From contig OZ243979.1 of assembly GCA_965214755.1 (NCBI GenBank), positions 3,669,022-3,733,021 of the forward strand: a DNA stretch of 64,000 nt, written 5' to 3'. The notes beneath the pieces are model-generated. The model searched no databases. It saw nothing but the letters and a program-made list of their open reading frames with translations, and had not been told where the DNA came from. Positions 1-43,739 of the stretch are shown here, one piece after another. The DNA is from an uncultured Candidatus Binatia bacterium (lineage in GTDB: Bacteria; Desulfobacterota; Binatia; Bin18). Both the position numbers and the translations under genes were made by a program. The first letter of the stretch is position 1. Each line of letters opens with the position of its first letter.

Positions 1-566
1 TGGAAGGGATAGGCGACTTTGCGCCAGGAACGACACCGACCGTTTTTGCTCTTCCCTTAAAGCGTCAACCTGTCCTCCCCTCGGACGGCAAAGCTATGGA
101 TGCTGACTCTTTTGAGACCTTCGGCGTGCTCATCTGCTATGAGGGCGTTTTTCCTGACCTCGCGCGTCGCTTCGTTCATAATGGCGCGCGGCTGCTGATC
201 AATGTGACCAATGATGCCTGGTTTGGAGAGACCTCGGCCCCCTATCAACATCTAGCCATGGAGGCCATGCGGGCCGTCGAGAATCGCGTTCCCCTAGTGC
301 GGTCCGCAAATACCGGGATTTCAGCTATTGTGAATATCGATGGACAGATTCAGGCCCAAACAGCGCTCCTGGAGACCACCTTTATTGCCGACCAGCTTGT
401 CTGGCCCCACGTGACCTCTTTCTATACCCGGTACGGTGATTGGTTCGTGACGTTGTGCGTCGTCGGGACGCTCGTTATGCTAAGCTACGCAGGGATAATT
501 GTATTATTCGTAAAGCGAAACGGAGGAGGCGGAGATGCTGGCAGAAATCAGAGAAAAACTAAATGA
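1..566 (+). CDS. lnt: Apolipoprotein N-acyltransferase, C-terminal part (5' partial; CN-hydrolase domain)
   Basis: Reading frame is open from position 3 to the stop at 566; translation ...VLICYEGVFPDLARR...NVTNDAWFGETSAPYQHL... matches the Lnt nitrilase-like domain; a TM-like C-terminal stretch follows. Confidence 0.6.
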   Translation, partial: EGIGDFAPGTTPTVFALPLKRQPVLPSDGKAMDADSFETFGVLICYEGVFPDLARRFVHNGARLLINVTNDAWFGETSAPYQHLAMEAMRAVENRVPLVRSANTGISAIVNIDGQIQAQTALLETTFIADQLVWPHVTSFYTRYGDWFVTLCVVGTLVMLSYAGIIVLFVKRNGGGGDAGRNQRKTK

Positions 567-4338: not shown

Positions 4339-4394
4339 AAAAAGGATAAACGTATCCAGCTTTTTTAGATTATTGGAGGATACGTTTATTCTTT
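4339..4394. repeat. Palindromic repeat element copy 5 (opposite orientation; arms carry a compensatory GTATCC/GGATAC change)
   Basis: aaaaaggataaacgtatccagcttttttagattattggaggatacgtttattcttt; the loop is the reverse complement of the loops in copies 3/4. Confidence 0.8.
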
Positions 4395-7917: not shown

Positions 7918-7973
7918 CGAAGAGGAAACGTGTCCAGCTTTTTTGTCTGATTGGAGGACACGTTCACTCTTTG
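7918..7973. repeat. Palindromic repeat element copy 7
   Basis: gaagaggaaacgtgtccagcttttttgtctgattggaggacacgttcactcttt. Confidence 0.8.
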
Positions 7974-8018: not shown

Positions 8019-9515
8019 GTGTTTTCAAAGATACTCATTGCAAACCGAGGTGAGATCGCCACTCGTATCGCTCGGACCTGTCGCGAAATGGATATTACGA
8101 CAGTGGCCGTGTACTCGGAGGCTGACCGTTCTTCACCCCATCTGTATGCGGCAGACGAGGCTGTGTGCGTGGGGCCGGCCCAGGCAAGCGAGAGCTATCT
8201 CAACGTGGAGTCTATCCTGGCCGTGGCCCGCCGGACCGGAGCCGACGCGGTCCATCCAGGGTATGGCTTTTTATCGGAGAATGCAACATTTGCTCGGGCC
8301 GTGGCTGATGCCGGTCTGACCTTTATCGGTCCTGCTCCAGATGCCCTGTCTGCGGTTGGAAATAAGATTGTTGCGCGCCGGACCGTGGCTCAACTCGGCG
8401 TTCCGGTGATTCCCGCCCTCGAAGACCCGGCGACCGACCCTGAGACTGTACGGGAGCAAGTTGCCGCACTCGGCTACCCCCTCTTGATTAAAGCAGCTGC
8501 GGGTGGGGGCGGTAAAGGAATGCGTATTGTGCGCCAGGAGGCCGAGTTGGTTGACGCCTTGTCCGCGGCGCAACGCGAAGCCGAAGCCGCCTTTGCCGAA
8601 GGCACGGTGTATGTCGAGCGTTTTCTCGAACGTCCACACCATGTGGAAGTCCAGATTCTTGGTGACACCGCCGGCAACATCGTCCATCTTGGCGAACGGG
8701 AGTGCTCCATTCAGCGCCGCTATCAAAAAATAGTCGAAGAGACCCCCTCGCCAGCCGTGTCCGAGTCCTTGCGGCAGGAGATGACGAGGGCCGCGCTGAC
8801 TGTGGCCAGGGCTGCGGGTTATGACAACGCCGGAACCGTAGAGTTCATCCTCGACAACGCCGGGAAATTCTATTTCCTGGAAGTCAACGCCCGTCTCCAA
8901 GTTGAGCATCCGATTACCGAGTGGATTACTGGTCTGGACCTGGTGCACGAACAAATTCGGATTGCCGCCGGAGAAACGCTGGGCTTCCAGCAAGACGACA
9001 TCTACCGTAATGGCCACGCCCTTGAGTGCCGTCTGTATGCGGAAGATGCCGCCCACGGGTTCCTGCCGTCACCCGGACATGTCCTGGCCTGGCATGCGCC
9101 CCAGGGGCCAGGAGTGCGGGTTGACTCCGGGGTCGAGTCGCAGACCGAGGTCCCGATATACTACGATCCCATGATTGCCAAGATTTCGACCTGGGGAGCG
9201 GACCGTGAACAAGCCCGGCGACGCATGGCCGGGGCGCTTCGTCAAACGGCAATTCTGGGACTCACGACCAATCTGCCTTTTTTGATTGAGCTCATGGACC
9301 ACCCTGCCTTTGCCGCCGGCGATACCCACACCGGCTTTCTGCCCGAGCATTTTCCGAACTGGCAGCCTGGCGAGCAGCCGCATACGCTTGCTGCCGCTTT
9401 GGCCGCCAGCCTGCACCGCGGTCCATATCGAAACGCTGATGGACAGACCGCTCTGCCCTCGCAGGACCCCTCGACACCGTGGCGACAGCTTGGCGGCTGG
9501 CGCCTCGGCTCCTGA
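8019..9515 (+). CDS. Biotin carboxylase subunit of an acyl-CoA carboxylase (BC domain + start of BT region)
   Basis: MFSKILIANRGEIATRIARTCREMDI...HPGYGFLSENA...ATP-grasp...EHPITE; 498 aa. Confidence 0.85.
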   Translation: MFSKILIANRGEIATRIARTCREMDITTVAVYSEADRSSPHLYAADEAVCVGPAQASESYLNVESILAVARRTGADAVHPGYGFLSENATFARAVADAGLTFIGPAPDALSAVGNKIVARRTVAQLGVPVIPALEDPATDPETVREQVAALGYPLLIKAAAGGGGKGMRIVRQEAELVDALSAAQREAEAAFAEGTVYVERFLERPHHVEVQILGDTAGNIVHLGERECSIQRRYQKIVEETPSPAVSESLRQEMTRAALTVARAAGYDNAGTVEFILDNAGKFYFLEVNARLQVEHPITEWITGLDLVHEQIRIAAGETLGFQQDDIYRNGHALECRLYAEDAAHGFLPSPGHVLAWHAPQGPGVRVDSGVESQTEVPIYYDPMIAKISTWGADREQARRRMAGALRQTAILGLTTNLPFLIELMDHPAFAAGDTHTGFLPEHFPNWQPGEQPHTLAAALAASLHRGPYRNADGQTALPSQDPSTPWRQLGGWRLGS

Positions 9516-9540: not shown

Positions 9541-9594
9541 AAAGAGTAAACGTGTCCTCCACTAGACATGATATGCTGGACACGTTTACTCTTT
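9541..9594. repeat. Palindromic repeat element copy 8, between the BC ORF and the BT/BCCP ORF
   Basis: aaagagtaaacgtgtcctccactagacatgatatgctggacacgtttactcttt. Confidence 0.85.
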
Positions 9595-24059: not shown

Positions 24060-25079
24060 TTATTTTTTGGGGACGTGTTTCAGCAGCAGTTGGATGAGCT
24101 GGTCGGCACTAATGCCCTCGGCCTCAGCCTGAAAGTTCAGCAGGCAGCGATGCCGCAGGGCCGATAGCGCAACATCGGTGATGTCCTCAAAACTGACATG
24201 TACCCGCCCGGCGAGCAGGGCGTTGACCTTGGCCCCTAAGGTGAGCGCCTGAGCCCCACGCGGGCTGGGACCATAGCGGAGATACTGCGTGACCTCGGGC
24301 ACCGGAGAATTCGGGCTGCTGGGCGTGGCGGCCTCAATAAGCCGGGCAATATACAAACTCAGCGGAGGAGCCAGCAGGACTTCGCGCACCAGATTTTGCA
24401 TCTCGGTGATGACCGTCGGAGCCGTCTCTGCCGAGAGGACCGGACTGATGCGGTACTGCGTCTCTTTTGTGGTGCGCTCAAGAATTTCGGCCACCTCATC
24501 CGCGCTGGGCGATTCGATAATCAGCTTGAGCAGAAAACGGTCTAGTTGGGCTTCGGGGAGCGGGTAGGTCCCCTCGATCTCAACCGGGTTCTGGGTCGCC
24601 ACAACAAGAAAAGGGGGCGTGAGGGTATGCGTCTCCCCAAAAACCGTAACCTGCTGCTCCTCCATTGCTTCAAGGACAGCCGACTGGGTCTTGGGCGTGG
24701 CACGGTTAATTTCGTCTGCCAGAACGATGTTGGCAAAGACCGGACCGGGCTTGAATTCAAAATAGCGCCGGCCGTCCGCGCCTTCAGACAGGACTTGGGT
24801 CCCAACAATATCAGACGGCATGAGGTCTGGCGTAAACTGAATACGCTTGGCGCTCAGCGCCAGGGCCTGGCTGAGTGACTTGGCCATCAACGTCTTGCCC
24901 AGACCCGGCACGCTTTCAATAAGGACGTGCCCGCCGGCAAAAAAGGCGGTTAAGATCTTCCGCAAGATACTCCGCTGGCCAACGATCACCTGCCCGACCT
25001 CTTCTTCGATGGTCGCAAAGATGTGTCGAAAGCGTTCAACCCGTTGTTCTGAGGATAATGGCGAGGGCGAAGCTGGCAT
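24060..25079 (-). CDS. MoxR-family AAA+ ATPase
   Basis: VIVGQRSILRKILTAFFAGGHVLIESVPGLGKTLMAKSL; alternative upstream start 25106 lies inside repeat copy 9. Confidence 0.8.
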   Translation of the reverse strand: MPASPSPLSSEQRVERFRHIFATIEEEVGQVIVGQRSILRKILTAFFAGGHVLIESVPGLGKTLMAKSLSQALALSAKRIQFTPDLMPSDIVGTQVLSEGADGRRYFEFKPGPVFANIVLADEINRATPKTQSAVLEAMEEQQVTVFGETHTLTPPFLVVATQNPVEIEGTYPLPEAQLDRFLLKLIIESPSADEVAEILERTTKETQYRISPVLSAETAPTVITEMQNLVREVLLAPPLSLYIARLIEAATPSSPNSPVPEVTQYLRYGPSPRGAQALTLGAKVNALLAGRVHVSFEDITDVALSALRHRCLLNFQAEAEGISADQLIQLLLKHVPKK

Positions 25080-25088
25080 GCTGCTCCT

Positions 25089-25143
25089 AAAGAGTAAACG
25101 TGCCAACAGCTATGCATGATACGGACGGCACGTCTACTCTTTC
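25089..25143. repeat. Palindromic repeat element copy 9
   Basis: aaagagtaaacgtgccaacagctatgcatgatacggacggcacgtctactctttctg. Confidence 0.75.
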
Positions 25144-26600
25144 TGTAAAATTGCTTGATATTCGAGCGGAATGCGCTGCTGGGGGGCATTTTTCTCCGGC
25201 GGACGATCAGCGAGCGGGGCGTTGCTATACGGTGTGGACGGGACAGCCGGGCTGGTATTTTCGGTCAATTCCTGGCTGTCCTGTTCCGCCCTGATACCGG
25301 TCGGAATACGAATTTTGACATAGCGGGCAGCCTGCGTCAGAAATCCGCCGGGCCGCTCGCCCGGTTGGTAAAAACGCTCGCCTTTTCCCTGCCCGCCAGA
25401 TTGTCCGGGCTGCTGGCCTGACTGCTCTGGGGCCTGCTGAGGCTGTTTTCTCTCATTGCTCTGCTGCGTGGCGTGACGGCGCTGTTCGTGCCCTGCTTTG
25501 TGCGGATCTACCCCGGAAGGTGGCTGCTGGGCGTCCGGTTGTTGGCCTGGTTGCGGTGTTTGTTGTTGCTGACCGGAGGTATTCTGTTGGGCCTGTTGCT
25601 TGCCTTTTTGTTCTTGAGACTGGGGCTGGTCAAATTTGATGCCGCCGCCGGATTCCTGGGGAGCGCTTTGGTGCTGTGACTGTTGCTTGTCTGATTGATC
25701 CGTCTGGTTTGTATTTTGCGCGCCCGGCTGCGTCTTGTCTCTCTGAGCAGACAGCGACTGCTTGAGGTGCTCCAGATTTTCATGTGTTTTCGCTAGCGGC
25801 GTATGCTCCGGCTGCGGGCTGTCGCCCTGGTTGCCCGGACTATCGTTTTGCTTGCTGTCGCTCCCGAAGAGCTTGGGATCAAGCGGAAGAATCTGCGGCA
25901 TTGGCAGCGGCAGATTCATGCGTTTTTGCGCCTCATCAATCAGGCGCATCTTCTCCTGGGGAGTCAGCGCTGGATTCTTGAGCTCCTGAGAGAGTACGAG
26001 GAGTTGGGCTCCGACTTGCTGTTCTTCAGGAGAAGACTGTGAGCGGATTAACTGCCGGGCCATGTCTTCAATATCCCGGAGCAGGGTTTCAGGCGTCGGC
26101 GCAACAGGTGAGGGGCGGCTTGGAGCCAGGGCTGCGCTGCCGGATGGTAAAAACACGAAGAGCAGACCACTCAGGACGGCACCGACGCACGCAAAAGGAA
26201 CACGCCTGTCGAGTTGGAAAGGTAGGTCTCGATCAGGAACGAAGAAGGCTGCCTTCCGAGCGGCTTCGCTCCGAACCTGGGCCACGAAGTCTGAGGAAGA
26301 GGGCAGGGTCGCCAGGGTGAGAAAACGCTCTTGGCCATCCGTCTTCTCGTCTAGCAGGCTTGCAATGTTCTCGTCTTGGCACCCCTTTTTTCCCTGTCTG
26401 AGGGATTTGAGTAGAAAGCTGAAGACGACGACGGATGGAAGAAAGGAAAATCCAATGGGTAGCGCATATGCCAGGATCAGACGGTACCCCAGGAAAAAAA
26501 CAGCAATCCCCAGGGGTAGAAAAAATCCGAGGGCATTGGCGCTCCGCTGCCACAATACCCGGCGGGCCGTAGTCGTGAACAGGTGAGACAAGCTATCCAT
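25134..26600 (-). CDS. Membrane protein with a long Gln/Pro-rich low-complexity C-terminal region (MoxR partner?)
   Basis: Start MDSLSHLF at 26600 (ATGgaTAG overlap with the mltG stop); TM helices then a Q/P-rich segment; the longer ORF-track start 26924 overlaps mltG and is rejected. Confidence 0.5.
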   Translation of the reverse strand: MDSLSHLFTTTARRVLWQRSANALGFFLPLGIAVFFLGYRLILAYALPIGFSFLPSVVVFSFLLKSLRQGKKGCQDENIASLLDEKTDGQERFLTLATLPSSSDFVAQVRSEAARKAAFFVPDRDLPFQLDRRVPFACVGAVLSGLLFVFLPSGSAALAPSRPSPVAPTPETLLRDIEDMARQLIRSQSSPEEQQVGAQLLVLSQELKNPALTPQEKMRLIDEAQKRMNLPLPMPQILPLDPKLFGSDSKQNDSPGNQGDSPQPEHTPLAKTHENLEHLKQSLSAQRDKTQPGAQNTNQTDQSDKQQSQHQSAPQESGGGIKFDQPQSQEQKGKQQAQQNTSGQQQQTPQPGQQPDAQQPPSGVDPHKAGHEQRRHATQQSNERKQPQQAPEQSGQQPGQSGGQGKGERFYQPGERPGGFLTQAARYVKIRIPTGIRAEQDSQELTENTSPAVPSTPYSNAPLADRPPEKNAPQQRIPLEYQAILQKE

Positions 26601-27600
26601 TGCGCGAGCCACGTTTCTGAAACCGGCGAACCGCGCGATTATGATCCGCAAGCCGGGAAGAGAATACGTGTGTGCCATCTCCCCGAGCAACAAAATAGAG
26701 GTAGTCCGTTTCGGCTGGGGAGAGGACGGCTTGAATAGCCGCGAGTCCCGGGTTGGCAATCGGGCCAGGCGGAAGGCCAGTAAACAGATAGGTATTATAC
26801 GGCGTGGGCGTCCGTAGATGGCGACGGGTGATATTCCCGTCAAAGTTCGGAATGCCATAGATGACGGTTGGATCACACTGGAGTGGAATATTTTGCCGGA
26901 GCCGATTGTGAAAGACTCCGGCAATCAGCGGACGTTCCTCTGCCGCCCCGGTTTCTTTCTCAATGAGCGAGGCCAAGGTCAGGACCTCATGCCGGGAGAA
27001 CCCCAACTCTTGGGTCTGTTGTTGCATGGCCGGGGTGAAGACTTCGGACAGACGTGTGACCATACGTCCCAGAATATCAGCCGCAGAGCTTTGCTTTGAA
27101 AAAAAATAGGTGTCCGGGTACAGGTAACCTTCAAGTCCGTATTCCTGGAGGTCCCATCTGGCTAAGAACTGAGCAGAGGTGCTCAGAGACAGGAATTGCT
27201 CTTGGGGGCCCAACCCCTGGTCTTCCAGTCTTTTGGCAATTTGTTTGAGTGTCAGTCCTTCCGGGATCATAACCATGTGGTGGATGACCTGACCTTGGGT
27301 CAATGTCTCAAGCAACCTCCGCGGGGTCAGCGGGGTTTCCAGGAGATACTCCCCACTCTGTATGGAATGGTCTTTGCCTGTGAATTGCGCCCAGAAACGA
27401 AATGGCTGAACGCTTGCCAGGATGCCTTCGACAACAAGCATCTGCGCCGTCTGTTGGAGAGTACTGCCCGGAGAGATAAAGATTCGAGCAGGAGCCGCTA
27501 AAGACGGGCCTGGTGTGTTGAGCCGGGCATAGACGTAACAGGCGGTGAGTCCGCTGACGCCAATGACAAGCCACGCGGTGAGAGGCAGAACTTTTTTCAC
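26593..27600 (-). CDS. mltG: Endolytic murein transglycosylase MltG (YceG family)
   Basis: C-terminal YLYFVARGDGTHVFSSRLADHNRAV; likely GTG start near 27600 (VKKVLPLTAWLVIGV TM helix); the ORF track extends to 27735. Confidence 0.65.
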   Translation of the reverse strand: MKKVLPLTAWLVIGVSGLTACYVYARLNTPGPSLAAPARIFISPGSTLQQTAQMLVVEGILASVQPFRFWAQFTGKDHSIQSGEYLLETPLTPRRLLETLTQGQVIHHMVMIPEGLTLKQIAKRLEDQGLGPQEQFLSLSTSAQFLARWDLQEYGLEGYLYPDTYFFSKQSSAADILGRMVTRLSEVFTPAMQQQTQELGFSRHEVLTLASLIEKETGAAEERPLIAGVFHNRLRQNIPLQCDPTVIYGIPNFDGNITRRHLRTPTPYNTYLFTGLPPGPIANPGLAAIQAVLSPAETDYLYFVARGDGTHVFSSRLADHNRAVRRFQKRGSRNG

Positions 27601-29294: not shown

Positions 29295-29693
29295 ATGCTG
29301 TCCCATACGGAAAAACTTCGGGTTCGGTGGGTCGACACTGATGCGTCGGGTCGCATTCATTACACAGCAGCGTTCCGGTATTTTGAGATAGCCGAGTGGG
29401 AATTGATGCGGCAGGCCGGGTTCCCGTTGTCCGATCACCGCAAAATATCAGGGCTGCCGCGGGTGAACGTCTCGGCAACATTTTATGCTCCCCTCTGTGT
29501 CGATGAACCGATTGAGGTAAAGGTCTGGGCTGAGCGGATTGGGACCACCTCCATTACCTTTGCCGGGGAAATCCACCGAGCCGGAGAGCGCTGCGTCAGT
29601 GGGTTGATTACCGCGGTTTTTGTGAATCCGCAGGACCAGCCTCAGCCCATTCCCGAGGCCGTTCGCCATGCTCTGAGCGCTGCGAAAGAGTAA
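29295..29693 (+). CDS. Acyl-CoA thioesterase (hotdog / 4HBT family); stop codon supplied by repeat copy 10
   Basis: RVRWVDTDASGRIHYTAAFRYFEIAEWELMRQAG. Confidence 0.7.
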   Translation: MLSHTEKLRVRWVDTDASGRIHYTAAFRYFEIAEWELMRQAGFPLSDHRKISGLPRVNVSATFYAPLCVDEPIEVKVWAERIGTTSITFAGEIHRAGERCVSGLITAVFVNPQDQPQPIPEAVRHALSAAKE

Positions 29694-29738
29694 ACGTGTC
29701 CAGCTGTGTAGCGGTAGAGAAGGACACCTTTATTCTTT
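29685..29738. repeat. Palindromic repeat element copy 10
   Basis: aaagagtaaacgtgtccagctgtgtagcggtagagaaggacacctttattcttt; its AAAGAG-TAA supplies the last two codons and the stop of the thioesterase gene. Confidence 0.75.
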
Positions 29739-29757
29739 GTGACGAAGTGCTTGGGAG

Positions 29758-29786
29758 TTGACAGAAAAAACCCGCTCGCATAGGTA
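29758..29786 (+). promoter_or_regulatory. Putative promoter of the rplU-rpmA-obg operon (TTGACA-17 nt-TAGGTA)
   Basis: ttgacagaaaaaacccgctcgcataggta, then GGGAG RBS before the rplU ATG. Confidence 0.3.
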
Positions 29787-29793
29787 ACGGGAG

Positions 29794-30114
29794 ATGTCAT
29801 ACGCAGTGATTCGTACGGGTGGAAAACAATATCGAGTGACGCAGGGCGAGTTCCTGCGCGTGGAATCTCTCCCAGGAGAGACAGGGAGTGATATTACGTT
29901 CTCTGATGTGCTGCTCACCTCAGCCGAGGGCGCTATTCAGGTTGGCACTCCGCTTGTTCCCGGCGCTTCGGTCACGGCCCGCGTTGTTGAGCATGGGAAA
30001 GAGAAAAAGATTATTGTTTTTAAGAAGAAGCGGCGCAAAGGGTATCGGCGCAAACAGGGTCATCGGCAGCCCTTTACGGCCGTACAGGTCAAATCCATCA
30101 ACCTGGGAGGATAA
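29794..30114 (+). CDS. rplU: 50S ribosomal protein L21
   Basis: [15 protein letters not shown]. Confidence 0.95.
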
Positions 30115-30116
30115 AG

Positions 30117-30371
30117 GTGGCACATAAAAAAGGACAAGGCTCCAGTCGGAATGGCCGAGACAGCCCAGGCCAACGCCGCGGCGTCAAGCTTTTTGCCGGG
30201 CAGTTTGCAAAAGCCGGGAATATTATTGTCCGGCAGCTCGGAACGCGTATCTACCCAGGAACCAATGTCGGCATGGGACGGGATTATACGCTGTTTGCGA
30301 AGACTGACGGAGTAATTCAGTTCGAACATATGGGCAAAACGCGGAAGCGGGTCTGCGTCTACCCGCAGTAA
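30117..30371 (+). CDS. rpmA: 50S ribosomal protein L27
   Basis: [16 protein letters not shown]. Confidence 0.95.
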
Positions 30372-30407
30372 ACCGCTCGGCCGCACGCGTGAGCACAAGG
30401 TTATAGG

Positions 30408-30434
30408 AAAAGCCCCACTTCGGGGCTTTTTTTA
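30408..30434 (+). terminator. Rho-independent terminator after rpmA
   Basis: aaaaGCCCCacttcGGGGCttttttt. Confidence 0.75.
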
Positions 30435-30474
30435 TTGGCCTTCTGCAGTCCTGCATTCTTGATATACATGGGCC

Positions 30475-31518
30475 ATGAACTTCGTTGACGAAGTGACCAT
30501 GACAGTCAAAGCCGGTGATGGCGGGCGCGGCTGTGTCAGCTTTCTGCGCGAGAAGTTCCGGCCCTGGGGGGGGCCGAACGGCGGAAATGGCGGAAATGGT
30601 GGAGATGTCGTCCTGCGCGTTGACCCGCAACGCCACACCCTGCTTGATCTCGCCCATCGGCATCACGTCAAAGCGGCACGGGGCGAACATGGACGCGGCA
30701 AGGACCAACACGGGAAAAATGCAAAGTCCCTCATTCTTCCTGTCCCAGCCGGAACCATTGCGCGCGATATGGAGAATGGAGAAATACTCGCCGACCTGCG
30801 AACTGCCGGGCAACAGGTTGTGGTCGCTCAGGGCGGAAGAGGTGGAAGAGGGAATGCCGCTTTCGCCACCTCCACCAATCGTGCCCCCCGGTTCGCTCAA
30901 CCGGGATTGCCTGGAGAGACGCGGCAGGTCCGGCTGGAACTTCGCTTATTGGCTGACGTTGGCCTGGTTGGGTTTCCCAATGTCGGGAAGTCGACGCTGA
31001 TATCTGCTGTGTCCGCGGCGCGTCCACGGGTTGCTGCCTTTCCCTTTACGACCCTCGTTCCCCACCTCGGCGTTGTGCGCTATGGCGATACAGGCTCATT
31101 TGTCATGGCTGACGTGCCAGGGCTCATTGAGGGCGCGCATACCGGACATGGCCTGGGCGTGCGTTTTCTGCGCCACCTCTCGCGGACTTCTATTCTGGTT
31201 CATCTTCTTGATATATCTGATCCAGCACGAGACCCGTATGCCGACTTCAGCGTCATCAACTGTGAACTTACCGCTTTTGATACTGCCCTGGCTCGTCGTC
31301 CGCAGATCGTGGTCGTCACAAAAGCGGACCTGCCGGGCACACGCGAACGTTTTCCTGAGGTGCAGGAAGTTTTTGTCCGGCATGAGAAAAAATTACATCT
31401 CATTTCTGCTGCAACCGGGGAGGGGAAACAGGAATTGGTAAGAGCAATTGCCCATCTGCTTGAACAGAGACAACGCCGGGTGGGCGACGAAGGGGAGACC
31501 GAGGGTTCCCCACCATGA
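30475..31518 (+). CDS. obg: GTPase Obg/CgtA
   Basis: MNFVDEVTMTVKAGDGGRGCVSFLREKF...GGNGGNGGDVVL; G1-G4 motifs. Confidence 0.95.
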   Translation: MNFVDEVTMTVKAGDGGRGCVSFLREKFRPWGGPNGGNGGNGGDVVLRVDPQRHTLLDLAHRHHVKAARGEHGRGKDQHGKNAKSLILPVPAGTIARDMENGEILADLRTAGQQVVVAQGGRGGRGNAAFATSTNRAPRFAQPGLPGETRQVRLELRLLADVGLVGFPNVGKSTLISAVSAARPRVAAFPFTTLVPHLGVVRYGDTGSFVMADVPGLIEGAHTGHGLGVRFLRHLSRTSILVHLLDISDPARDPYADFSVINCELTAFDTALARRPQIVVVTKADLPGTRERFPEVQEVFVRHEKKLHLISAATGEGKQELVRAIAHLLEQRQRRVGDEGETEGSPP

Positions 31519-32660
31519 GCGACTACACTATCCAACTCACACATAAAGCGCGTATTCTTGAGAAGACGAGGCGTATTGTGGTGAAGGTCGGGAGCAGTGT
31601 GCTATCCAATGGAGACGGTGTCTATCCTCCACGGATCGGCCAACTCGCGACGACCCTTTCTACCTTGCAGCAGGCGGAGGTGGTCTTAGTCACTTCGGGA
31701 GCCGTGGCTGCTGGAATGGGCGTCCTCAATATGAAACAGCGCCCGAGGACGATACCGGCGAAACAGGCGGCGGCAGCCATTGGACAGATTACGCTCATGG
31801 CGTTGTATGAAGAATGCTTTTCGCAGCACGCTACCCGGGTGGCGCAGATTCTGCTCACCCATGACGATCTGGCCAACCGCAGACGCTATTTGAACGCCAA
31901 GCATACCCTCCTGACGCTGATTGAATCCGGGGTTGTGCCCATCGTGAACGAGAATGACACGGTGGCGGTTGAAGAAATCCAGTTTGGCGACAACGATAAT
32001 CTCTCTGCCCAAGTCGCCGTCCTGGTCGAGGCGGATCTGTTGATCATCTTGAGCGATGTTGCTGGTCTATATGAAACAGACCCCCGTCTGGACCAGCACG
32101 CGAAACGTATTGCTCTGGTCGATCAGTTCGACGAACAATTGATACAGCGGTGCGGTGCAGCCGGTCCGTTAGGCCGCGGCGGGATGACCTCTAAAATCGA
32201 AGCCGCTCAAAAGGCGGCCCTGTCGGGTATTCCGTCCCTTCTTATAGATGGGCGACGCGCTGAAGAGCTCGGTGCCGCTTTTGACCCGCAGCAGGAAGTG
32301 GGCACGCTGTTTCTGCCAGTCTCGGACAGGATTGCGAGTCGGAAACATTGGATTGCCTATACATTGAAGCCGGCCGGCTCACTCCATCTCGATGCTGGGG
32401 CCGCGGCGGCGATTCGGCGGGATGGGAGGAGTCTGTTACCTGCCGGGGTGCGTGGCGTATATGGGAGCTTTGAGGAAGGGGACTGTGTGACCTGTCTCGA
32501 CGAAAGCGGATATGAATTTGCGCGGGGCTTAGTGAATTATAGCGCCGCCGCTCTGATGCAAATTCAAGGCGTCCACACGAGCCAGATCGAACAGACGCTC
32601 GGCTATAAGGTGAGTGATGAAGTGATTCATCGGGACGACTTGGCCCTGCTACAAGACTAG
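31515..32660 (+). CDS. proB: Glutamate 5-kinase (with PUA domain)
   Basis: VVKVGSSVLS... amino-acid kinase fold + C-terminal PUA. Confidence 0.9.
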   Translation: MSDYTIQLTHKARILEKTRRIVVKVGSSVLSNGDGVYPPRIGQLATTLSTLQQAEVVLVTSGAVAAGMGVLNMKQRPRTIPAKQAAAAIGQITLMALYEECFSQHATRVAQILLTHDDLANRRRYLNAKHTLLTLIESGVVPIVNENDTVAVEEIQFGDNDNLSAQVAVLVEADLLIILSDVAGLYETDPRLDQHAKRIALVDQFDEQLIQRCGAAGPLGRGGMTSKIEAAQKAALSGIPSLLIDGRRAEELGAAFDPQQEVGTLFLPVSDRIASRKHWIAYTLKPAGSLHLDAGAAAAIRRDGRSLLPAGVRGVYGSFEEGDCVTCLDESGYEFARGLVNYSAAALMQIQGVHTSQIEQTLGYKVSDEVIHRDDLALLQD

Positions 32661-32684
32661 TGAAGAGACACAAAGGGAGAGGCG

Positions 32685-33941
32685 ATGAGTCTTGAAAATA
32701 TGGTGATCGCATTAGCCCACACCGCAAAAAAAGCCGCCCGGGTACTGGCAACAATGTCAACGCAGACGAAAAATAATGCACTTCTTGCCGCCGCCCAGCA
32801 ACTCCGGGATCAGACGGAAGTCCTCCTCGCTGCCAATGCACAGGATGTTGCTCGGGGGAAAGACAACGGTTTATCTACCGCTCTGCTCGACCGGCTGACG
32901 CTGAATCAATCGCGCATACACGCTATGGCCACAGGGCTCGAAATTATGGTCGATCTGCCGGACCCGGTCGAGGAAACGGTCGCGACCTGGAAGCGACCAA
33001 ATGGCCTGGAAATCAGCCAGGTCCGCGTTCCGCTCGGTGTTGTCGGAATTATTTACGAGTCGCGGCCGAATGTCACGGCCGATGCCGCCGGCCTGTGTCT
33101 CAAGGCTGGCAATGCGGTTGTTCTCAAAGGGGGGTCGGAGGCGTTTACAACGAACAGCGCTATTGTCGATATTCTCGCGCAGGCCTTTGCCGAAGCGGGT
33201 TTGCCGGCCGGGGCAGTCCAACTGGTCCGTTCGACCGACCGACAGGCCGTCACCTTTCTCCTCCAACAAGACCGCTATATTGATGTCATTATTCCGCGTG
33301 GCGGAGAGGAATTGATACGCGCCGTCACGCGCGAATCCGCTATCCCCGTCATTCAGCATTTCTCCGGCCTGTGTCACACCTATGTCGATGCTGCGGCTGA
33401 TATTGAAAAAGCGCACCAAGTTTGCCTGAACGCCAAGGCACAAAGACCCTGGGTGTGCAATGCGATGGAGAACCTGCTGGTGCATGAGGCCGTTGCGCCT
33501 CGTTTTCTGCCAGACTTTGTGGCGCGACTCGAACAAGAGGGCGTCGAGGTTCGTGGCTGCGACCAGACGCGCCAGGTCGTCCCTCAGGTGGGCGTCGCGA
33601 CTGAGACGGATTGGCAAACCGAGTATCTTGATAAAATTCTCTCGGTCAAAGTGGTACGCTCGCTTGATGAGGCGCTGGATTTCATTCATACCAACGGGTC
33701 AGGACTGGCCGATTGTATCGTGAGCGAAGATTACACCTGCGTCCGGCGGTTTCTGCGTGAAGTCGACTCTGCGACGGTCTATGCAAACGCTTCGACGCGA
33801 TTCACCGATGGCTTTGAGTTCGGATTTGGGGCTGAGGTTGGCATTTCGACGAACCGACTCCACGCCAGGGGACCCATGGGGCTGCGTGAGCTGACAACGT
33901 ATAAATATGTGGTCTACGGAGATGGTCAGATACGAGCATAA
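32685..33941 (+). CDS. proA: Gamma-glutamyl phosphate reductase
   Basis: 418 aa aldehyde-dehydrogenase-like; position after proB. Confidence 0.9.
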   Translation: MSLENMVIALAHTAKKAARVLATMSTQTKNNALLAAAQQLRDQTEVLLAANAQDVARGKDNGLSTALLDRLTLNQSRIHAMATGLEIMVDLPDPVEETVATWKRPNGLEISQVRVPLGVVGIIYESRPNVTADAAGLCLKAGNAVVLKGGSEAFTTNSAIVDILAQAFAEAGLPAGAVQLVRSTDRQAVTFLLQQDRYIDVIIPRGGEELIRAVTRESAIPVIQHFSGLCHTYVDAAADIEKAHQVCLNAKAQRPWVCNAMENLLVHEAVAPRFLPDFVARLEQEGVEVRGCDQTRQVVPQVGVATETDWQTEYLDKILSVKVVRSLDEALDFIHTNGSGLADCIVSEDYTCVRRFLREVDSATVYANASTRFTDGFEFGFGAEVGISTNRLHARGPMGLRELTTYKYVVYGDGQIRA

Positions 33942-33962
33942 CATGCCAATAGGCTCTGACGT

Positions 33963-34631
33963 ATGAAAGTCGGCCTGTTCGGCGGAACGTTTAACCCCAT
34001 CCATTGCGGTCATTTGCGCAGTGCGGAAGAAGTCTGCGCAGCGTTTACCCTTGACCGCATCTACTTCGTTCCTTCTGCCTCTCCTCCGCACAAGCGCACA
34101 ACGGATATTGCCCCTGCTCATCATCGCTACAATATGGTGGAGCGGGCCGTTGCCGCCAACCCTGCTTTCTTTGCCTCTCGTATCGAACTCGACCGTGCAG
34201 GCCCCTCGTTTTCGATTGATACGATACGCACCTTTCGGACAAGAGGAACATGGACCTCTCTCGCTTTTCTTATCGGGATGGATGCGTTCCGTGAGATAGA
34301 GACGTGGAAGGATTACCTGGAAATCCCCAGCTTATGCGACCTGATTGTCACCTCGCGTCCCGGGGTTCCCACACCACCACTTGACCAGTTCCTTCCCGTT
34401 GCTCTGCGGTCCGCCTTTTGGTATGATTCAGTTCGGCAGAGATATCAGCACGAATCAGGGCATACGTTGACGCTCTATACACTGAACGGTCTCCATATTT
34501 CGGCCTCCAGCATCCGCGACAACCTGCGCGCCGGTCGGCCCACATCCTGCCAACTCCCGCCTGCCGTGGCAGACTACATCGCTACTCACGCTCTCTATCG
34601 TCCGCAAAAGGCTCTTTCCCTTGAAGGCTGA
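33963..34631 (+). CDS. nadD: Nicotinate-nucleotide adenylyltransferase
   Basis: MKVGLFGGTFNPIHCGHL. Confidence 0.9.
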   Translation: MKVGLFGGTFNPIHCGHLRSAEEVCAAFTLDRIYFVPSASPPHKRTTDIAPAHHRYNMVERAVAANPAFFASRIELDRAGPSFSIDTIRTFRTRGTWTSLAFLIGMDAFREIETWKDYLEIPSLCDLIVTSRPGVPTPPLDQFLPVALRSAFWYDSVRQRYQHESGHTLTLYTLNGLHISASSIRDNLRAGRPTSCQLPPAVADYIATHALYRPQKALSLEG

Positions 34632-35016
34632 CGCCAGCTGGCAAAAAGTCCTGAGGTGCGCTCAATCCGCGCTGGATAAAAAGGCCTACGACCTGGTTGT
34701 CCTCGACGTCGAAGCGCTGACGTCTGTTGCCTCTTATTTTGTGATTTGTACCGGGCGGTCGGATATTCAGGTACAGACGATCAGCCAAGCGATTGAGGAG
34801 GCCCTCCGGCGGGAAGGCCACCGCCCGTTAGCCCTTGAAGGCGTCTCGCACGGACAATGGATCCTCATGGATTTCGGGGATGTCATTGTCCATATTTTCT
34901 ACGAAACAGTCCGAGCGTTTTACAATCTTGAAGGACTCTGGGCCAAGGCTCCACGCTGTACGCTACCTGAACCCTACTCGACGCAAGCCATGGACCTCCG
35001 ACTCGAAACCGGCTAG
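34621..35016 (+). CDS. rsfS: Ribosomal silencing factor RsfS (Iojap), TTG start
   Basis: KKAYDLVVLDVEALTSVASYFVICTGRSDIQVQ...HIFYETVRAFYNLEGLW. Confidence 0.85.
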   Translation: MKADASWQKVLRCAQSALDKKAYDLVVLDVEALTSVASYFVICTGRSDIQVQTISQAIEEALRREGHRPLALEGVSHGQWILMDFGDVIVHIFYETVRAFYNLEGLWAKAPRCTLPEPYSTQAMDLRLETG

Positions 35017-35122
35017 CAGCCTTTCCCTGGTGCTGAGAAAATCCGCCTTCTCTTTCTTTCCACACGACTTTCCTCGTATACTAGGAGCAGGAACCAGCGA
35101 GCACACCTCGGTGGGAGATGCT

Positions 35123-35527
35123 ATGGGTCGAACGGCTTCTGCGCAAGAGATTCTGTATTACGGCAGTACCCCTAAACACCAGTATTGGGAAAACGAAAAA
35201 CAGACCCTGCGTCTCGTCCGCGACCGGGCTGCGTCCGTCTGGCGGGCGTATCACAAGCAAAACGGTCGGTATCGCCCCTTGCTCGGGAAGTCTCGCCCCC
35301 CAGCCGGACCCCGAAAAGGGAAACGGAAATCGACGCCGCTGACGGGCAGAAGCGCTGAAGAAGTCGTGGCTAATATCAAACATGACTATCAGCTGCGGTT
35401 GGTGCTTGAGCAACGACTGCGTCGCTGGATGGACAAGTCGTCAGGAAAGCGTGTGCTGGCCTTTCTCGATCCAAACCAGGGAGGTGCGCCAGCAATGACG
35501 GACCCAGGCACGTATAATGCCCAATAA
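35123..35527 (+). CDS. Hypothetical basic protein
   Basis: 134-aa ORF from ATG 35123; no recognisable family; ORF-track upstream extension (34835) overlaps rsfS and is rejected. Confidence 0.3.
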   Translation: MGRTASAQEILYYGSTPKHQYWENEKQTLRLVRDRAASVWRAYHKQNGRYRPLLGKSRPPAGPRKGKRKSTPLTGRSAEEVVANIKHDYQLRLVLEQRLRRWMDKSSGKRVLAFLDPNQGGAPAMTDPGTYNAQ

Positions 35528-35659
35528 TACCAGCTCATCTCTCTCAGCAGAAAAATACAGAAAAATCAGTTGTCTACCGAGCGTGGCAGACTACAGGGAC
35601 GCCGGGAGCAGAGAACCTTCACCACGGGAATATGTCTCTGCAGCGCGGATGTGTTGACC

Positions 35660-36634
35660 CTACCAGCGCGCAACCGATGCCCCCCAGGTGAGCCCGCCCC
35701 CACAGCCGTTGAGCACGACAATATCGTCCTCCTGCACTTTGCCTGCTCGAACCGCCTCATCCAGGGCTATCGGAATAGAAGCCGCAGACGTATTTCCGAA
35801 GCGGTCCACATTGCAGTGCACCTTGTCCATACTCGCACCCAAACGGTCGGCCACCGCTTGGATAATGCGTAAATTTGCCTGATGGGGGACCATCAGCTTG
35901 ATATCTTCTGGAGCGAGGCCAGCTTTTTCAAGGGCTTTTTTTGTCACGTCGGACAGGGCGCGAACGGCGACCTTGAACAGTTCAGGGCCTCGCATCTGAA
36001 TTCCCCAGTCCGGTTCCTGCTCTCCGGCTTGATCAAACGTTTGCCGCAGACCGGACCGAACGTGGAGCAATTGCCACAGGGCTCCGCTGGACTCGACGAC
36101 CGTGCTGAGCAGACCTCGATCGTTTGGCTGATTGTCTAACACGACGGCCCCGGCGCCATCCCCGAACAGGACACACGTCGTCCGGTCTCCCCAGTTGACC
36201 ATGGAACTCAGGGCATCTGCGCCAACCAGCAGAATACGGTTATACTCGCCGCTTTTGAGGTAGCTATGGGCAACCGACATGCCGTACACAAACCCGGCGC
36301 AGGCCGCCGCAACATCAAAGGCAGGAATATTATCCACGCCCAGGCGCGTTTGGAGTAAGCAGGCCGTGGAAGGAAAGGCATATTCCCCGGAGACTGTGGC
36401 GATCAGGATCACATCCAAGTCCTGCGCAGACAGGCCTGCCGCCTTGAGCGCCGTTTCACTCGCCGCGTGAATGAGGTCGAGCAAGTCCTCATCCTTGCGG
36501 AGGACTCGTCGCTCCTGTATGCCGGTTCGCGTGACGATCCATTTATGATTGGTGTCAACTCGCCCGGCCAGATCATCATTGGTGAGACAGGTCGAAGGGA
36601 CGGCGGAACCCGTGCCGATAATACGTGCGCCCAT
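35660..36634 (-). CDS. fabH: 3-oxoacyl-ACP synthase III
   Basis: MGARIIGTGSAVPSTCLTNDDLAGRVDTNHKWIVTRTGIQERR. Confidence 0.9.
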   Translation of the reverse strand: MGARIIGTGSAVPSTCLTNDDLAGRVDTNHKWIVTRTGIQERRVLRKDEDLLDLIHAASETALKAAGLSAQDLDVILIATVSGEYAFPSTACLLQTRLGVDNIPAFDVAAACAGFVYGMSVAHSYLKSGEYNRILLVGADALSSMVNWGDRTTCVLFGDGAGAVVLDNQPNDRGLLSTVVESSGALWQLLHVRSGLRQTFDQAGEQEPDWGIQMRGPELFKVAVRALSDVTKKALEKAGLAPEDIKLMVPHQANLRIIQAVADRLGASMDKVHCNVDRFGNTSAASIPIALDEAVRAGKVQEDDIVVLNGCGGGLTWGASVARW

Positions 36635-36668
36635 GCGCTACCTCTTTAGTCCTTCTTGCCCAGCGAGA

Positions 36669-36725
36669 TAAAGAGTACACGCGCCCTCCAAACCATACAA
36701 AGCTGTTGGCACGCTTACTCTCTCA
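36669..36725. repeat. Palindromic repeat element copy 11 (degenerate arms)
   Basis: aaagagtacacgcgccctccaaaccatacaaagctgttggcacgcttactctctc. Confidence 0.65.
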
Positions 36726-36812
36726 GGCCAATCAATACGTTTCATGCTGTGTCGCTCAAGGCAGGTTCTGATTGCTTCGGTTCCAGTGTTCTCGTTATGC
36801 CGCCCGCCCGTT

Positions 36813-38090
36813 CTACCGATTTGTGCTCTGTCCGCTTTGATCGTTGTCCCATTTGCGAAAGACGAGACAGGCATTAGTGCCCCCAAAGCCGAAGGAATTG
36901 GATAAGACGGCCCGGACTGGTGTCGGGCGGGCCGTGTTGGGCACATAGTCTAAATCACACTCCGGATCAGGCTCCTCATAGTTAATGGTTGGCGGTATGA
37001 TCTGATGATGGAGCGCCAAAGCGGAATAGACGGCTTCGACGCCGCCGGCAGCCCCAAGTAAGTGGCCGGTCATAGACTTGGTTGAGCTGATAGCGAGCTT
37101 TGCGGCGTGTTCGCCAAAGACTCTTTTCAGGGCCAGGGTTTCGGTTGCGTCGTTATACGGTGTTGAAGTTCCGTGCGCGTTGACGTAATCGATCTCAGTG
37201 GGATCAAGTCCGCTGCTCCGGAGGGCCAGCCGCATGCATCGGACTGCTCCCTCACCTTCGGGCGAGGGGGCAGTGATATGATGCGCGTCCCCATTGGCAC
37301 CGTAGCCGACCACTTCAGCGTAGATGGTTGCCCCATGACTCTTTGCGAACTCGAGTTCCTCCAACACAATGATACCGGCGCCTTCGGCCATGACAAAGCC
37401 GTCACGATTCTTGTCAAACGGACGGCTGGCCCTCTCAGGCTCGTCGTTTCGCGTCGAGACCGCTCGCATGGCAACAAAGCCGCCCAGCCCTAAAGAGGTC
37501 AACGCTGCCTCTGCTCCCCCAGCAATAACCGCGTCTTGGTCGCCCAGTCGAATGGCCCGGTACGCTTCACCAATGGCATGCGCACCAGAAGAGCAGGCAC
37601 TCGTTGGCGTATAATTAATACCTTTGGCGCCATAGCGAATAGAGATTTGGCCGGGTGCCAGGTTGCTCAACAGCTTGGGGATAAAGAAGGGAGAAACGCG
37701 TTTGAGACGGGTATCGAGAAAGAGCAGATGATTCTCCTCAATACTGGTCAGCCCACCAATCCCCACCCCGATAATACACCCCACCAGATCCTCATTGTCC
37801 GGCGTGATCGGGAGCTTGGCCTCATCCATTGCCATCTGGGCCGCGGCCACACTGTACTGGATGAAGAGGTCCATCTTTTTGACCTCTTTCTTCTCGATAA
37901 AATCGGTGGGCGTGAAGTCAGTGACCTCACCAGCGATCCGCGTGGGAAAGTCTGAGACGTCAAAGCGGGTTAACGGTCCTACCCCAGAACGGCCTTCAAG
38001 CAGTGCTTGCCAGTTTTTCTCCACCCCAGTGCCCAGTGGAGTGACCGCTCCCAGCCCAGTAATGACGACACGGCGTTGCCCGTCTTGCAT
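36813..38090 (-). CDS. fabF: 3-oxoacyl-ACP synthase II
   Basis: [15 protein letters not shown]...; KAS II motifs; alternative start 38108. Confidence 0.9.
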
Positions 38091-38353
38091 GATATCCTGC
38101 CTTAACACACTACTGCTGCCACCGTCCCAATGATGGGCTCAACAGTTTTTTCCCAGCACCTCTCTGTTCCCCAAACACGCTGCTCAGGCCGTGTATCTTA
38201 AAGACTCCGGGAACCCCCTGCAACCAGCATAGCCATCTCATCAAGAATCCGGATCGGGTGAACGAGGACCAAAGGGAGTCCCTTTTCTGACAGTGGGCTG
38301 CTATACGGAATGCTCCAAAGACCATACCGTGATCAGGAGGAGTTGCCAGGCGT

Positions 38354-39619
38354 ATGCCAGAACAGGGACAGGATCGATACTCCCAAACGGTGTGCCTGAA
38401 CCAACGGGCCTACGCCTTCCCGCATCGGCCTGTAGTCGTGATCTGTATAGACGGGTGCGATCCAGCTTATATCAAGACCGGGCTGGCCCAGAACATTCTA
38501 CCCAACATCCAGCGCTTTCTCACCCAAGGGTTTGGCACTTGGGCGGACGCGGTCGTCCCAACGTTTACGAATCCGAACAACCTGTCCATTGTCACGGGCA
38601 GTCCGCCCGCCGTGCATGGGATTTCGGGGAATTACTTTCTTGATCCGACAACAGGACAGCCGGTCATGATGACCGATCCCCGCCAACTCCGCTCAGAAAC
38701 CCTGCTGGCGCGCTTCTCCCACAGCGGGGCCAAAGTCATCGTCATCACCGCCAAAGAGAAACTGCGCCGTTTACTTGGCCACGGCATCGCCGACGGGATG
38801 TGTTTCTCTGCCGAAAAAGCGGAGGAGTGTACCATCCCCGTGCATGGTATTGAGAACGTGTGTCAGCGGCTTGGTCGTCCACAGCCCGCCGTCTACTCTG
38901 CCGAGCTGTCACTTTTTGTCTTGGAAGCCGGCCTCGCCCTGCTCGAACAACACCGACCGGATCTGATGTATCTCTCGCTGAGCGACTACGTCCAACATAA
39001 ACATGCGCCGGGGAGTGCAGAAGCGAACGCGTTCTATGCCGCGCTTGACCGGGCGTGCGGTCAGCTGGCTCAGGCAGGAGCCTTGGTCGCCCTCGCCGCC
39101 GACCATGGGATGAACGCCAAACCGCGGGTCGTATTTCTCCAGGATATCCTGGACACGAGTTGCGGTCAGGGCAAGACACGCGTGATCTGCCCGATTACCG
39201 ACCCCTACGTAGCCCATCATGGTGCCTTGGGGTCCTGTGTCCGCGTCTACTGTCCTGGTACGGACCGGGCTGCCGTGCGGGCTATCATCGCAAACATTCC
39301 TGGGGTTGAGGCGGTCTATGAGAGGCCCACCGCGTGTGCACAGTTTTGCCTGCCGCCCGACCGTGAGGCTGATCTCCTTGTACTTGGCGATCAACTCACG
39401 GCCGTTGGTGCGGCAGAACGAGACCATGATTTGTCCGGGTTAGGAGGTACGCCGCTCCGCTCTCATGGCGGACGCGCGGAACAGGTGGTGCCATTCATTC
39501 TTTCTGAGCCCGTCTCCGAGGCGTACCATACCCGCGCGGCAACCGTTCGGCCCAGCAACTTTGACCTGTTCGACTACGCTTTGAATGGGACAAAAAGAGT
39601 AAACGTGCCAACCGTTTGA
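38354..39619 (+). CDS. Alkaline-phosphatase-superfamily hydrolase (phosphonoacetate hydrolase / nucleotide pyrophosphatase-like); C-terminus and stop encoded within repeat copy 12
   Basis: VVICIDGCDPAYI...TFTNPNNLSIVTGSPPAVHGISGNYF (AP-superfamily metal-site motifs). Confidence 0.55.
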   Translation: MPEQGQDRYSQTVCLNQRAYAFPHRPVVVICIDGCDPAYIKTGLAQNILPNIQRFLTQGFGTWADAVVPTFTNPNNLSIVTGSPPAVHGISGNYFLDPTTGQPVMMTDPRQLRSETLLARFSHSGAKVIVITAKEKLRRLLGHGIADGMCFSAEKAEECTIPVHGIENVCQRLGRPQPAVYSAELSLFVLEAGLALLEQHRPDLMYLSLSDYVQHKHAPGSAEANAFYAALDRACGQLAQAGALVALAADHGMNAKPRVVFLQDILDTSCGQGKTRVICPITDPYVAHHGALGSCVRVYCPGTDRAAVRAIIANIPGVEAVYERPTACAQFCLPPDREADLLVLGDQLTAVGAAERDHDLSGLGGTPLRSHGGRAEQVVPFILSEPVSEAYHTRAATVRPSNFDLFDYALNGTKRVNVPTV

Positions 39620-39646
39620 TCTGTTTGGAGGCGCGTTTACTCTTTT
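39593..39646. repeat. Palindromic repeat element copy 12 (opposite orientation)
   Basis: aaaaagagtaaacgtgccaaccgtttgatctgtttggaggcgcgtttactctttt; its left arm encodes the last residues (KRVNVPTV) and TGA of the upstream gene. Confidence 0.75.
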
Positions 39647-41459: not shown

Positions 41460-41516
41460 AAAAAGAGTCGACACGCTAGCAGCTTTGCATGACTTGGAGA
41501 GTGTGTTGACTCTTTA
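41460..41516. repeat. Palindromic repeat element copy 13 (degenerate)
   Basis: aaaagagtcgacacgctagcagctttgcatgacttggagagtgtgttgactcttta. Confidence 0.6.

Positions 41517-43663: not shown

Positions 43664-43739
<76 letters not shown>

Follow-up and report, generated by a model that had tools for sequence, protein, structure and literature searches.

A lineage-specific family of 54-nucleotide palindromes that enters gene ends and reading frames in Candidatus Binatia

Candidatus Binatia very probably carries a lineage-specific family of 54 nt palindromic elements, the insertion of which remodels both the ends and the interiors of genes. This family was analysed in a 64,000 nt stretch of DNA from an uncultured Binatia bacterium (assembly GCA_965214755.1, contig OZ243979.1, positions 3,669,022 to 3,733,021 of the forward strand; hereafter the window, with 57% G+C), in which its consensus is AAAGAGTAAACGTGTCC-N20-GGACACGTTTACTCTTT. 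The original prediction for this stretch held that copies of the repeat remodel the termini of adjacent genes, and its numbering fits the elements recovered here: copy 8 at 9541-9594, copy 9 at 25089-25142, copy 10 at 29685-29738, copy 11 at 36670-36723 and copy 12 at 39594-39645. Syntenic loci of relatives, at 82-92% DNA identity, were compared for empty and filled sites, and Pfam agreed with the gene labels already proposed. These empty-site comparisons upheld the remodelling of 3' ends, whereas both of the proposed cases at 5' ends proved to be start-codon artefacts. The earlier reading was also too narrow, as the same elements are found in frame inside conserved enzymes.

The gene for a 4HBT-family acyl-CoA thioesterase (29295-29693, forward strand; 132 aa; Pfam) ends GCT GCG AAA GAG TAA, giving the C-terminus ...ALSAAKE*. 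Its final nine bases, AAAGAGTAA, are positions 1-9 of copy 10 (reverse strand), which therefore provides the last two codons, Lys and Glu, and the TAA stop, as had been predicted. The nearest orthologs are 130 aa long and end ...ALNAE*, ...ALNTE* or ...ALSAA*, in DNA without the element, and the site is empty in the relatives' loci L001-L005 and L022. Copy 10 constitutes 54 nt placed exactly between the last sense codon of the thioesterase and the ancestral TGA, which is kept at 29740-29742. Likewise, copy 12 (reverse strand; 52 nt, or 39593-39646 counting an extra A/T pair) encodes the final KRVNVPTV and TGA of a gene previously labelled as alkaline-phosphatase-family, and assigned by Pfam to the Type I phosphodiesterase / nucleotide pyrophosphatase family (38354-39619, forward strand; 421 aa). 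The 3' end reads ACA AAA AGA GTA AAC GTG CCA ACC GTT TGA, or T-KRVNVPTV*, with the TGA (39617-39619) in the loop of the element. In L036 and L051 the gene ends ...DYALNGT-SGL-TAG, whereas the window has ...DYALNGT-KRVNVPTV-TGA, with the displaced ...GGTAG 3' of the element. Copy 12 was thus inserted three codons ahead of the ancestral stop, changing SGL* to KRVNVPTV*, and the site is empty in L036, L051, L003 and L004.

A third case was found at the 5' neighbour of the MoxR-type ATPase gene (25134-26924, reverse strand), which has its ...ILQ followed by a KE-TAG from the right arm of copy 9 (25142-25134). In relatives it ends ...ILQ-TAG, with a TAG that overlaps the MoxR Shine-Dalgarno sequence (TAGGAG), and copy 9 lies precisely where the final sense codon (Q) meets this TAG; the same junction in L001-L004 is a 7 nt spacer without an element. 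The reverse situation occurs at Obg: a copy in relatives makes it end ...GDGEE-KE*, where the native tail of the window is longer and overlaps proB. The tails of the thioesterase, the phosphodiesterase-family protein and the MoxR neighbour are therefore attributed to the element on the basis of sequence comparison, because the syntenic empty sites have different C-termini. Were these overlaps instead coincidences or annotation artefacts, native C-termini would simply resemble an arm of the repeat. Two of the four original examples, namely the starts of BCCP and MoxR, do prove to be artefacts of choosing the longest open reading frame (ORF), and the C-termini of the phosphodiesterase-family proteins vary even among relatives lacking the element (419, 433 and 436 aa). 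Yet the orthologous empty sites display exact 54 nt insertions, the ancestral stop lies just 3' of the copy (the thioesterase TGA, the MoxR-neighbour TAG) or, in the tail that was replaced, after three codons (SGL*), and 36 copies in 19 independent sites end an ORF with Lys-Glu-stop. The C-termini of orthologs lacking the repeat are not identical to those of the window, hence coincidental overlap is not supported for the 3' ends, and this explanation is barely credible.

The 5' ends did not withstand the same comparison. Copy 8 is a perfect match to the consensus on the forward strand, lying between the stop of biotin carboxylase (9513-9515) and the start of a biotin carboxyl carrier protein (BCCP)-like gene, and had been taken to contain the start of the latter. 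The GTG at 9552 is simply the earliest start codon to follow a stop; relatives conserve ATG 9600 (MKTFLYAAGEEL) as the start, and this yields a protein of 173 aa, as in L118, which has no element here. The spacer between biotin carboxylase and BCCP is without an element in both L098 and L118. Similarly, copy 9 (reverse strand), at the junction of MoxR and the upstream reverse-strand gene, overlaps the MoxR 5' end only if the ORF is started at 25106, which is a longest-ORF artefact. The MoxR-type AAA ATPase gene (24060-25079, reverse strand; Pfam) starts at an ATG (25079-25077) outside the element and encodes 339 aa, as in four relatives, with its AGGAG Shine-Dalgarno directly adjoining copy 9, again outside it.

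The generality of such overlaps was assessed with 188 copies from 1.04 Mb, grouped into 110 orthologous site clusters, using a codon-usage score trained on long ORFs to judge coding status, and our own gene calls outside the window. A coding ORF enters the element at 40 of the 110 sites (~36%), and 70 sites are purely intergenic; these proportions are approximate, as most of the sites are in loci chosen for a perfect copy, a form of sampling that counts against our reading. At 19 of the sites (36 copies) the ORF stops at the TAA in element positions 7-9, ending Lys-Glu-stop; at ~14 the stop lies elsewhere in the element, and ~6 are internal read-through insertions. Beyond the Lys-Glu-stop sites, the next in-frame stop follows within nine codons in 11 of the 19, and immediately, at zero codons, in three, suggesting that only insertions at the very 3' end of a gene persist. 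An apparent excess of the TAA frame among individual copies (38:20:13) was discarded, as it vanished once orthologous copies were collapsed (21:14:11, p = 0.18, not significantly different from random). The orientation of the loop relative to the gene was also random (14 in orientation A, 21 in B). The lack of a significant frame preference and the random loop orientation point to insertion followed by purifying selection, rather than to a designed function, and the remodelling of termini would then be a by-product of insertion.

Elements within conserved enzymes extend the same pattern from gene ends to gene interiors. The RimO of the window, at 504 aa, holds two in-frame copies, at 3035-3088 (KRKRVLQSSKKAGHVSAF, site 1) and 3236-3289 (KRERVLQSSKKAGHASSF, site 2), both on the forward strand. 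Its orthologs measure 504, 486 or 466-468 aa, lengths that correspond to two, one and no inserts, and all four combinations of the two sites (both, site 1 only, site 2 only, neither) occur in the alignment. Orthologs of 84-92% identity differ in whether they carry the copy at site 1, site 2 is polymorphic independently, and some inserts (P0128, P0132) have decayed yet still keep the frame. Alignment to the RimO of Thermotoga maritima (PDB 4JC0) leaves a gap opposite site 1, and by the Pfam domain limits site 2 falls within the linker that joins the UPF0004 and radical-SAM domains. An AlphaFold model of RimO with both inserts, built on a shallow alignment, reached a mean pLDDT of 61, too poor to place them.

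The glycerate kinase gene (DUF4147/MOFRL) presents a similar picture, with an in-frame copy at 5157-5210 (forward strand, RVRVPSNHTKKQATCPLF); the DNA of L118 does not contain it, and neither do most orthologs. At a second, independent site, 40 residues upstream, some relatives have a full 18 aa insertion, KEETCPAFLDDRRTRSLF, and others none, and the window keeps 6 extra nt (RPRS-LF) similar to the terminal part of a right arm (5025-5041, forward strand). This probable right-arm remnant may be read as the microhomology deletion footprint of a lost copy. As for RimO, glycerate kinase aligned to PDB homologs shows gaps precisely where the inserts lie. A further copy, diverged in sequence (59-112, forward strand; covariance model E = 0.0075), is in frame, as KRQPVLPSDGKAMDADSF, in an Lnt-like CN_hydrolase ORF truncated by the start of the window, and is probably an old in-frame insertion.

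The structure of the element accounts for many of these outcomes in outline. If a copy lands near the end of a gene in the AAA GAG TAA frame, the protein would end Lys-Glu-stop; were it to land in either of the remaining frames, it would be translated up to a stop in the loop, or right through, in which case its length of 54 nt, exactly 18 codons, would keep the downstream frame. Each arm, read from its outer end on its own strand, is AAA GAG TAA, and over 90% of copies start AAAGAG. Among 95 distinct 54 nt copies, the stem comprises 17 bp, paired at 17 positions, above which the mismatches T18.T37 and C19.C36 are conserved, giving the element polarity, and a C20-G35 pair closes a variable 14 nt loop. 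Within the stem, pair 7-48 is TA in 67 copies and GC in 25, and pair 15-40 is TA in 76 and CG in 13. Overall, 94.4% of stem cells are paired, and 48 cells have changes on both sides, compared with 12.8 in shuffled data (a value reached by none of 500 shuffles); this pairing collapses once partners are slid. Predicted hairpins have folding energies of -16 to -28 kcal/mol, with z-scores of -3.9 to -7.6.

The abundance of the family is such that its 17 nt arm has 21 matches in the window with up to three mismatches, against 0.07 expected, and inverted-repeat detection recovers the same 54 nt units there. A covariance model built from 78 distinct copies finds 14 in the 64 kb window, starting at 59, 1730, 1818, 3035, 3236, 4341, 5157, 7919, 9541, 25089, 29685, 36670, 39594 and 41462, and a further 14 in 88.6 kb of relatives' loci that were not picked for the repeat. 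Hence the density in the window and these unselected loci is approximately one copy per 4.6-6.3 kb, which extrapolates to ~800-1100 copies per 5 Mb genome. A palindrome scan of one genome per species matched at least 112 stretches, and all the matches listed were from Candidatus Binatia metagenome-assembled genomes (MAGs), bar one genome labelled Thermodesulfobacteriota. A scan of viral contigs found no copies. At the gathering score, Rfam returned only tRNA-Met and no family for the repeat; at E ≤ 1, it added only sub-threshold chance matches (E ~0.4-0.5). A literature search on Binatia repeats found nothing relevant.

Comparisons between close relatives demonstrate how copies come and go. 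In the filled and empty pairs L020/L050, L027/L063 and L101/L099, the difference is an exact 54 nt insertion, from AAAGAG to CTCTTT, without a duplicated target. Across sites, direct repeats of at least 2 nt, such as a target-site duplication would leave, were not enriched; there was a 1 nt identity excess at positions -1/+1. Among relatives at 82-92% DNA identity, copies have been gained at new sites, and some have also been lost. The flanks of 110 independent sites (the window and L001-L117) exhibit a weak symmetric bias, with A at 3% at -6, G at 50% at -5 and G at 12% at -8, which is possibly a target preference; no target consensus was found beyond it. Nor do the flanks extend the hairpin, as complementarity at positions 1-4 on either side is below chance. 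One pair of elements, L025:6478-6531 and L025:7310-7363, are exact reverse complements, including the variable loop, and flank a 778 nt segment; the arrangement may represent either a composite unit or a segment that has been inverted.

The loop is itself variable in orientation. Both orientations occur at 15 of the 38 orthologous sites with at least two copies, and the identity of loops after flipping is 0.85, compared with 0.46 for random pairs, which indicates inversion in place rather than repeated insertion. Copy 11 (forward strand), between ketoacyl synthase and fabH-like genes, has an inverted loop in L036 (4088) and L094 (2697), and its site is empty in L001, L003, L004 and L051; the copy at 4341-4394 has an ortholog in L118 (1052) with the loop inverted. 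Such flips invite the reading of the elements as invertible switches, in which the loop toggles between a stop and an open frame, reversibly varying C-termini or inserts. The frequency of orientation differences and the near-identity of flipped loops are in keeping with this, as is one site at which the ORF reads through in L013 and L096 and stops in L117. Nevertheless, inversions were seen only between different MAGs and not within a population, the Lys-Glu-stop in the arm is independent of loop orientation, and no invertase is linked to the elements. Passive mutation is known to invert spacers between short inverted repeats, and this process may account for the flips; dedicated switching is accordingly quite improbable.

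The preferred explanation is therefore one of insertion and subsequent selection. Insertion would be nearly random, bar the weak symmetric flank preference, and selection would then spare only those copies lying in spacers, at the very 3' ends of genes or at internal positions that tolerate them. Once a copy has been inserted, its loop is often inverted in place. We speculate that the DNA hairpin is moved by a trans-acting enzyme that makes no duplication, like those of IS200/IS605 elements or the RAYT transposases. A bolder version, which we consider unlikely, is that this duplication-free hairpin is actively mobile by an unrecognised mechanism, RAYT-like or otherwise, and generates protein variation by insertion, inversion and imprecise loss, providing housekeeping enzymes with 18-residue modules and new C-termini, some of them reversible by loop inversion.

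Several points, besides the sampling of sites, weigh against a family of elements remodelling genes by insertion. Firstly, a search for transposase and HUH genes, both in the window and between closely spaced elements in ~1 Mb of loci, found none; the ORFs in both are ordinary metabolic genes only. Secondly, most of the covariation in the stem comes down to two or three subfamily states (T7-A48 versus G7-C48), and descent from a few master copies, as opposed to numerous independent compensations, may underlie it. Thirdly, the translation of the inserted 18-residue peptides is suggested by conserved reading frames only. Fourthly, the hairpin may have a function for the host, such as protection of mRNA 3' ends or protein binding, and every intergenic copy in the window is flanked by co-directional genes.

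The last of these points bears upon the alternative that the elements are host-selected RNA signals, akin to REP-like stabilisers of 3' ends or weak bidirectional terminators, with the donation of stops being an adaptive packing of the signal against the gene end. The stability of the hairpins, the compensatory changes that uphold the stem, the co-directional placement of intergenic window copies, the stop inside the stem at 19 of the 110 sites, and the U-rich UUACUCUUU that follows the upper stem would all fit such a signal. However, a terminator scan of 24-42 kb lists no element except for a 5 bp sub-stem at 25123, with loops being 14-20 nt and lacking a T-run, and the flanks are not T-rich. 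Copies are also placed within tight operon junctions (that upstream of MoxR, 7 nt in relatives; biotin carboxylase-BCCP; Obg-proB) and within ORFs, sites are present or absent between close relatives, the loop orientation is random and flips, and the TAA frame is not significantly preferred. Host-selected RNA signalling hence appears a rather improbable origin of the family. The specific candidacy of the elements as intrinsic terminators was rejected following the consensus scan of 24-42 kb and a promoter scan, as they are not terminator-like.

The remaining copies in the window are intergenic. Two on the forward strand (1730-1783 and 1818-1871) share the spacer between prfB and a PAC2-family gene, and one on the reverse strand (7919-7972) separates an APH-family kinase gene from biotin carboxylase, at a site that is empty in L098. 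Two more on the reverse strand abut translation start regions: that in the RimO-dksA spacer (4341-4394) has an end adjoining the GGAG Shine-Dalgarno of dksA (GGAGAAGG), and a diverged copy in the trpS-scpA spacer (41462-41515) has its end on the base that precedes the first ATG of the scpA ORF. Hairpins at these two positions could occlude ribosome binding sites. The last 22 kb of the window (41516-64000) are without any copy, and hold tRNA-Met (43664-43739) and genes for DUF2513, DUF4145 and N6_N4 DNA methylase proteins; this region may include recently acquired DNA.

Other variation was observed around the thioesterase and obg loci. In relatives, the thioesterase-rplU spacer (10393-10430 of L001/L002) contains a 10 nt unit, AAAGA(C/T)GATC, in tandem, with three or two copies (L001/L002 versus L003/L004), and 3' of these units is a promoter-like block, TTGACA...TAGGTAA, conserved in all the genomes compared, including the window (29760-29790). 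Three extra genes (one of unknown function, GmrSD_N and an N6_N4 methylase) lie between rpmA and obg in L002 (11231-13818), are absent from the window and three other relatives, and look like a small defence-type insertion.

The entry of palindromes into genes is a known phenomenon, and it is the Binatia family and its details that appear undescribed. The closest behaviour is that of the Rickettsia palindromic elements (RPEs), the hallmark of which is in-frame fusion to host ORFs (PMC10969869, PMC2229807). Like RPEs, the Binatia elements are palindromic, present in many copies, found in spacers and in frame in conserved genes, encode a family-specific peptide, leave the host gene intact, and are polymorphic among relatives. 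By description they are nevertheless set apart from RPE-1 to RPE-10, which are ~100-150 bp and Rickettsia-specific, as they are 54 nt, have a TAA in each arm, producing Lys-Glu-stop tails, and are far denser, at about one per 5-6 kb.

In size, the comparison is with the REPs and their RAYT transposases, short palindromes that make no target duplication and undergo compensatory stem changes, as in the IS200/IS605 family (PMC2817692). The Binatia element shares with REPs and REPINs a short, abundant, imperfect palindrome with compensatory stem changes, a non-complementary middle, no target-site duplication, and a location mostly between co-directional genes. It differs in starting AAAGAG rather than with a GT(A/G)G head, in occurring mostly as single copies rather than BIME or REPIN doublets, and in not being extragenic, given the 40 of 110 sites entered by a coding ORF; nor was a cognate RAYT gene found between inverted copies in the window, or between close pairs in the ~1 Mb of loci.

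MITEs (transposable elements that are miniature and have inverted repeats) provide further parallels. In Coxiella burnetii, QMITE1 and QMITE2 overlap the 3' ends of functional genes and alter C-terminal residues with little change in size, and the last 33 residues of EnhC come from a QMITE (PMC5896051). The Binatia element similarly overlaps 3' ends and changes C-termini, but is 54 nt rather than 150-400 bp, has none of the 2-11 nt terminal direct repeats, and has a fixed stop codon in its arms. Correia or NEMIS elements, and other MITEs derived from IS630, have terminal inverted repeats, hairpin transcripts and ORFs fused to host ORFs (PMC2229807). The 17 nt arms of the Binatia element are likewise terminal inverted repeats, and 54 nt is within the 50-500 bp of MITEs; in contrast to Correia and NEMIS elements, with their TA duplication, length of 100-155 bp and IHF site, it has neither a duplication nor a TA target. 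Hence this is a REP-sized hairpin without target duplication that behaves like an RPE and has a stop codon in each arm, and it is a full match to none of the systems compared.

The in-frame colonisation of genes by palindromes, held to be near-peculiar to Rickettsia, is therefore now found in an unrelated, free-living and uncultured lineage of soil and sediment. As several closed MAGs display each site in its filled, empty and inverted states, and the element is only 54 nt, the duplication-free movement of a hairpin, the tolerance of proteins to 18-residue inserts, and the frequency with which C-termini are made by repeats all become directly testable. For annotation, the consequence is that the starts and stops of Binatia genes are systematically affected, with Lys-Glu-stop tails, length classes differing by 18 aa, and false upstream starts inside repeats all arising because of the element.

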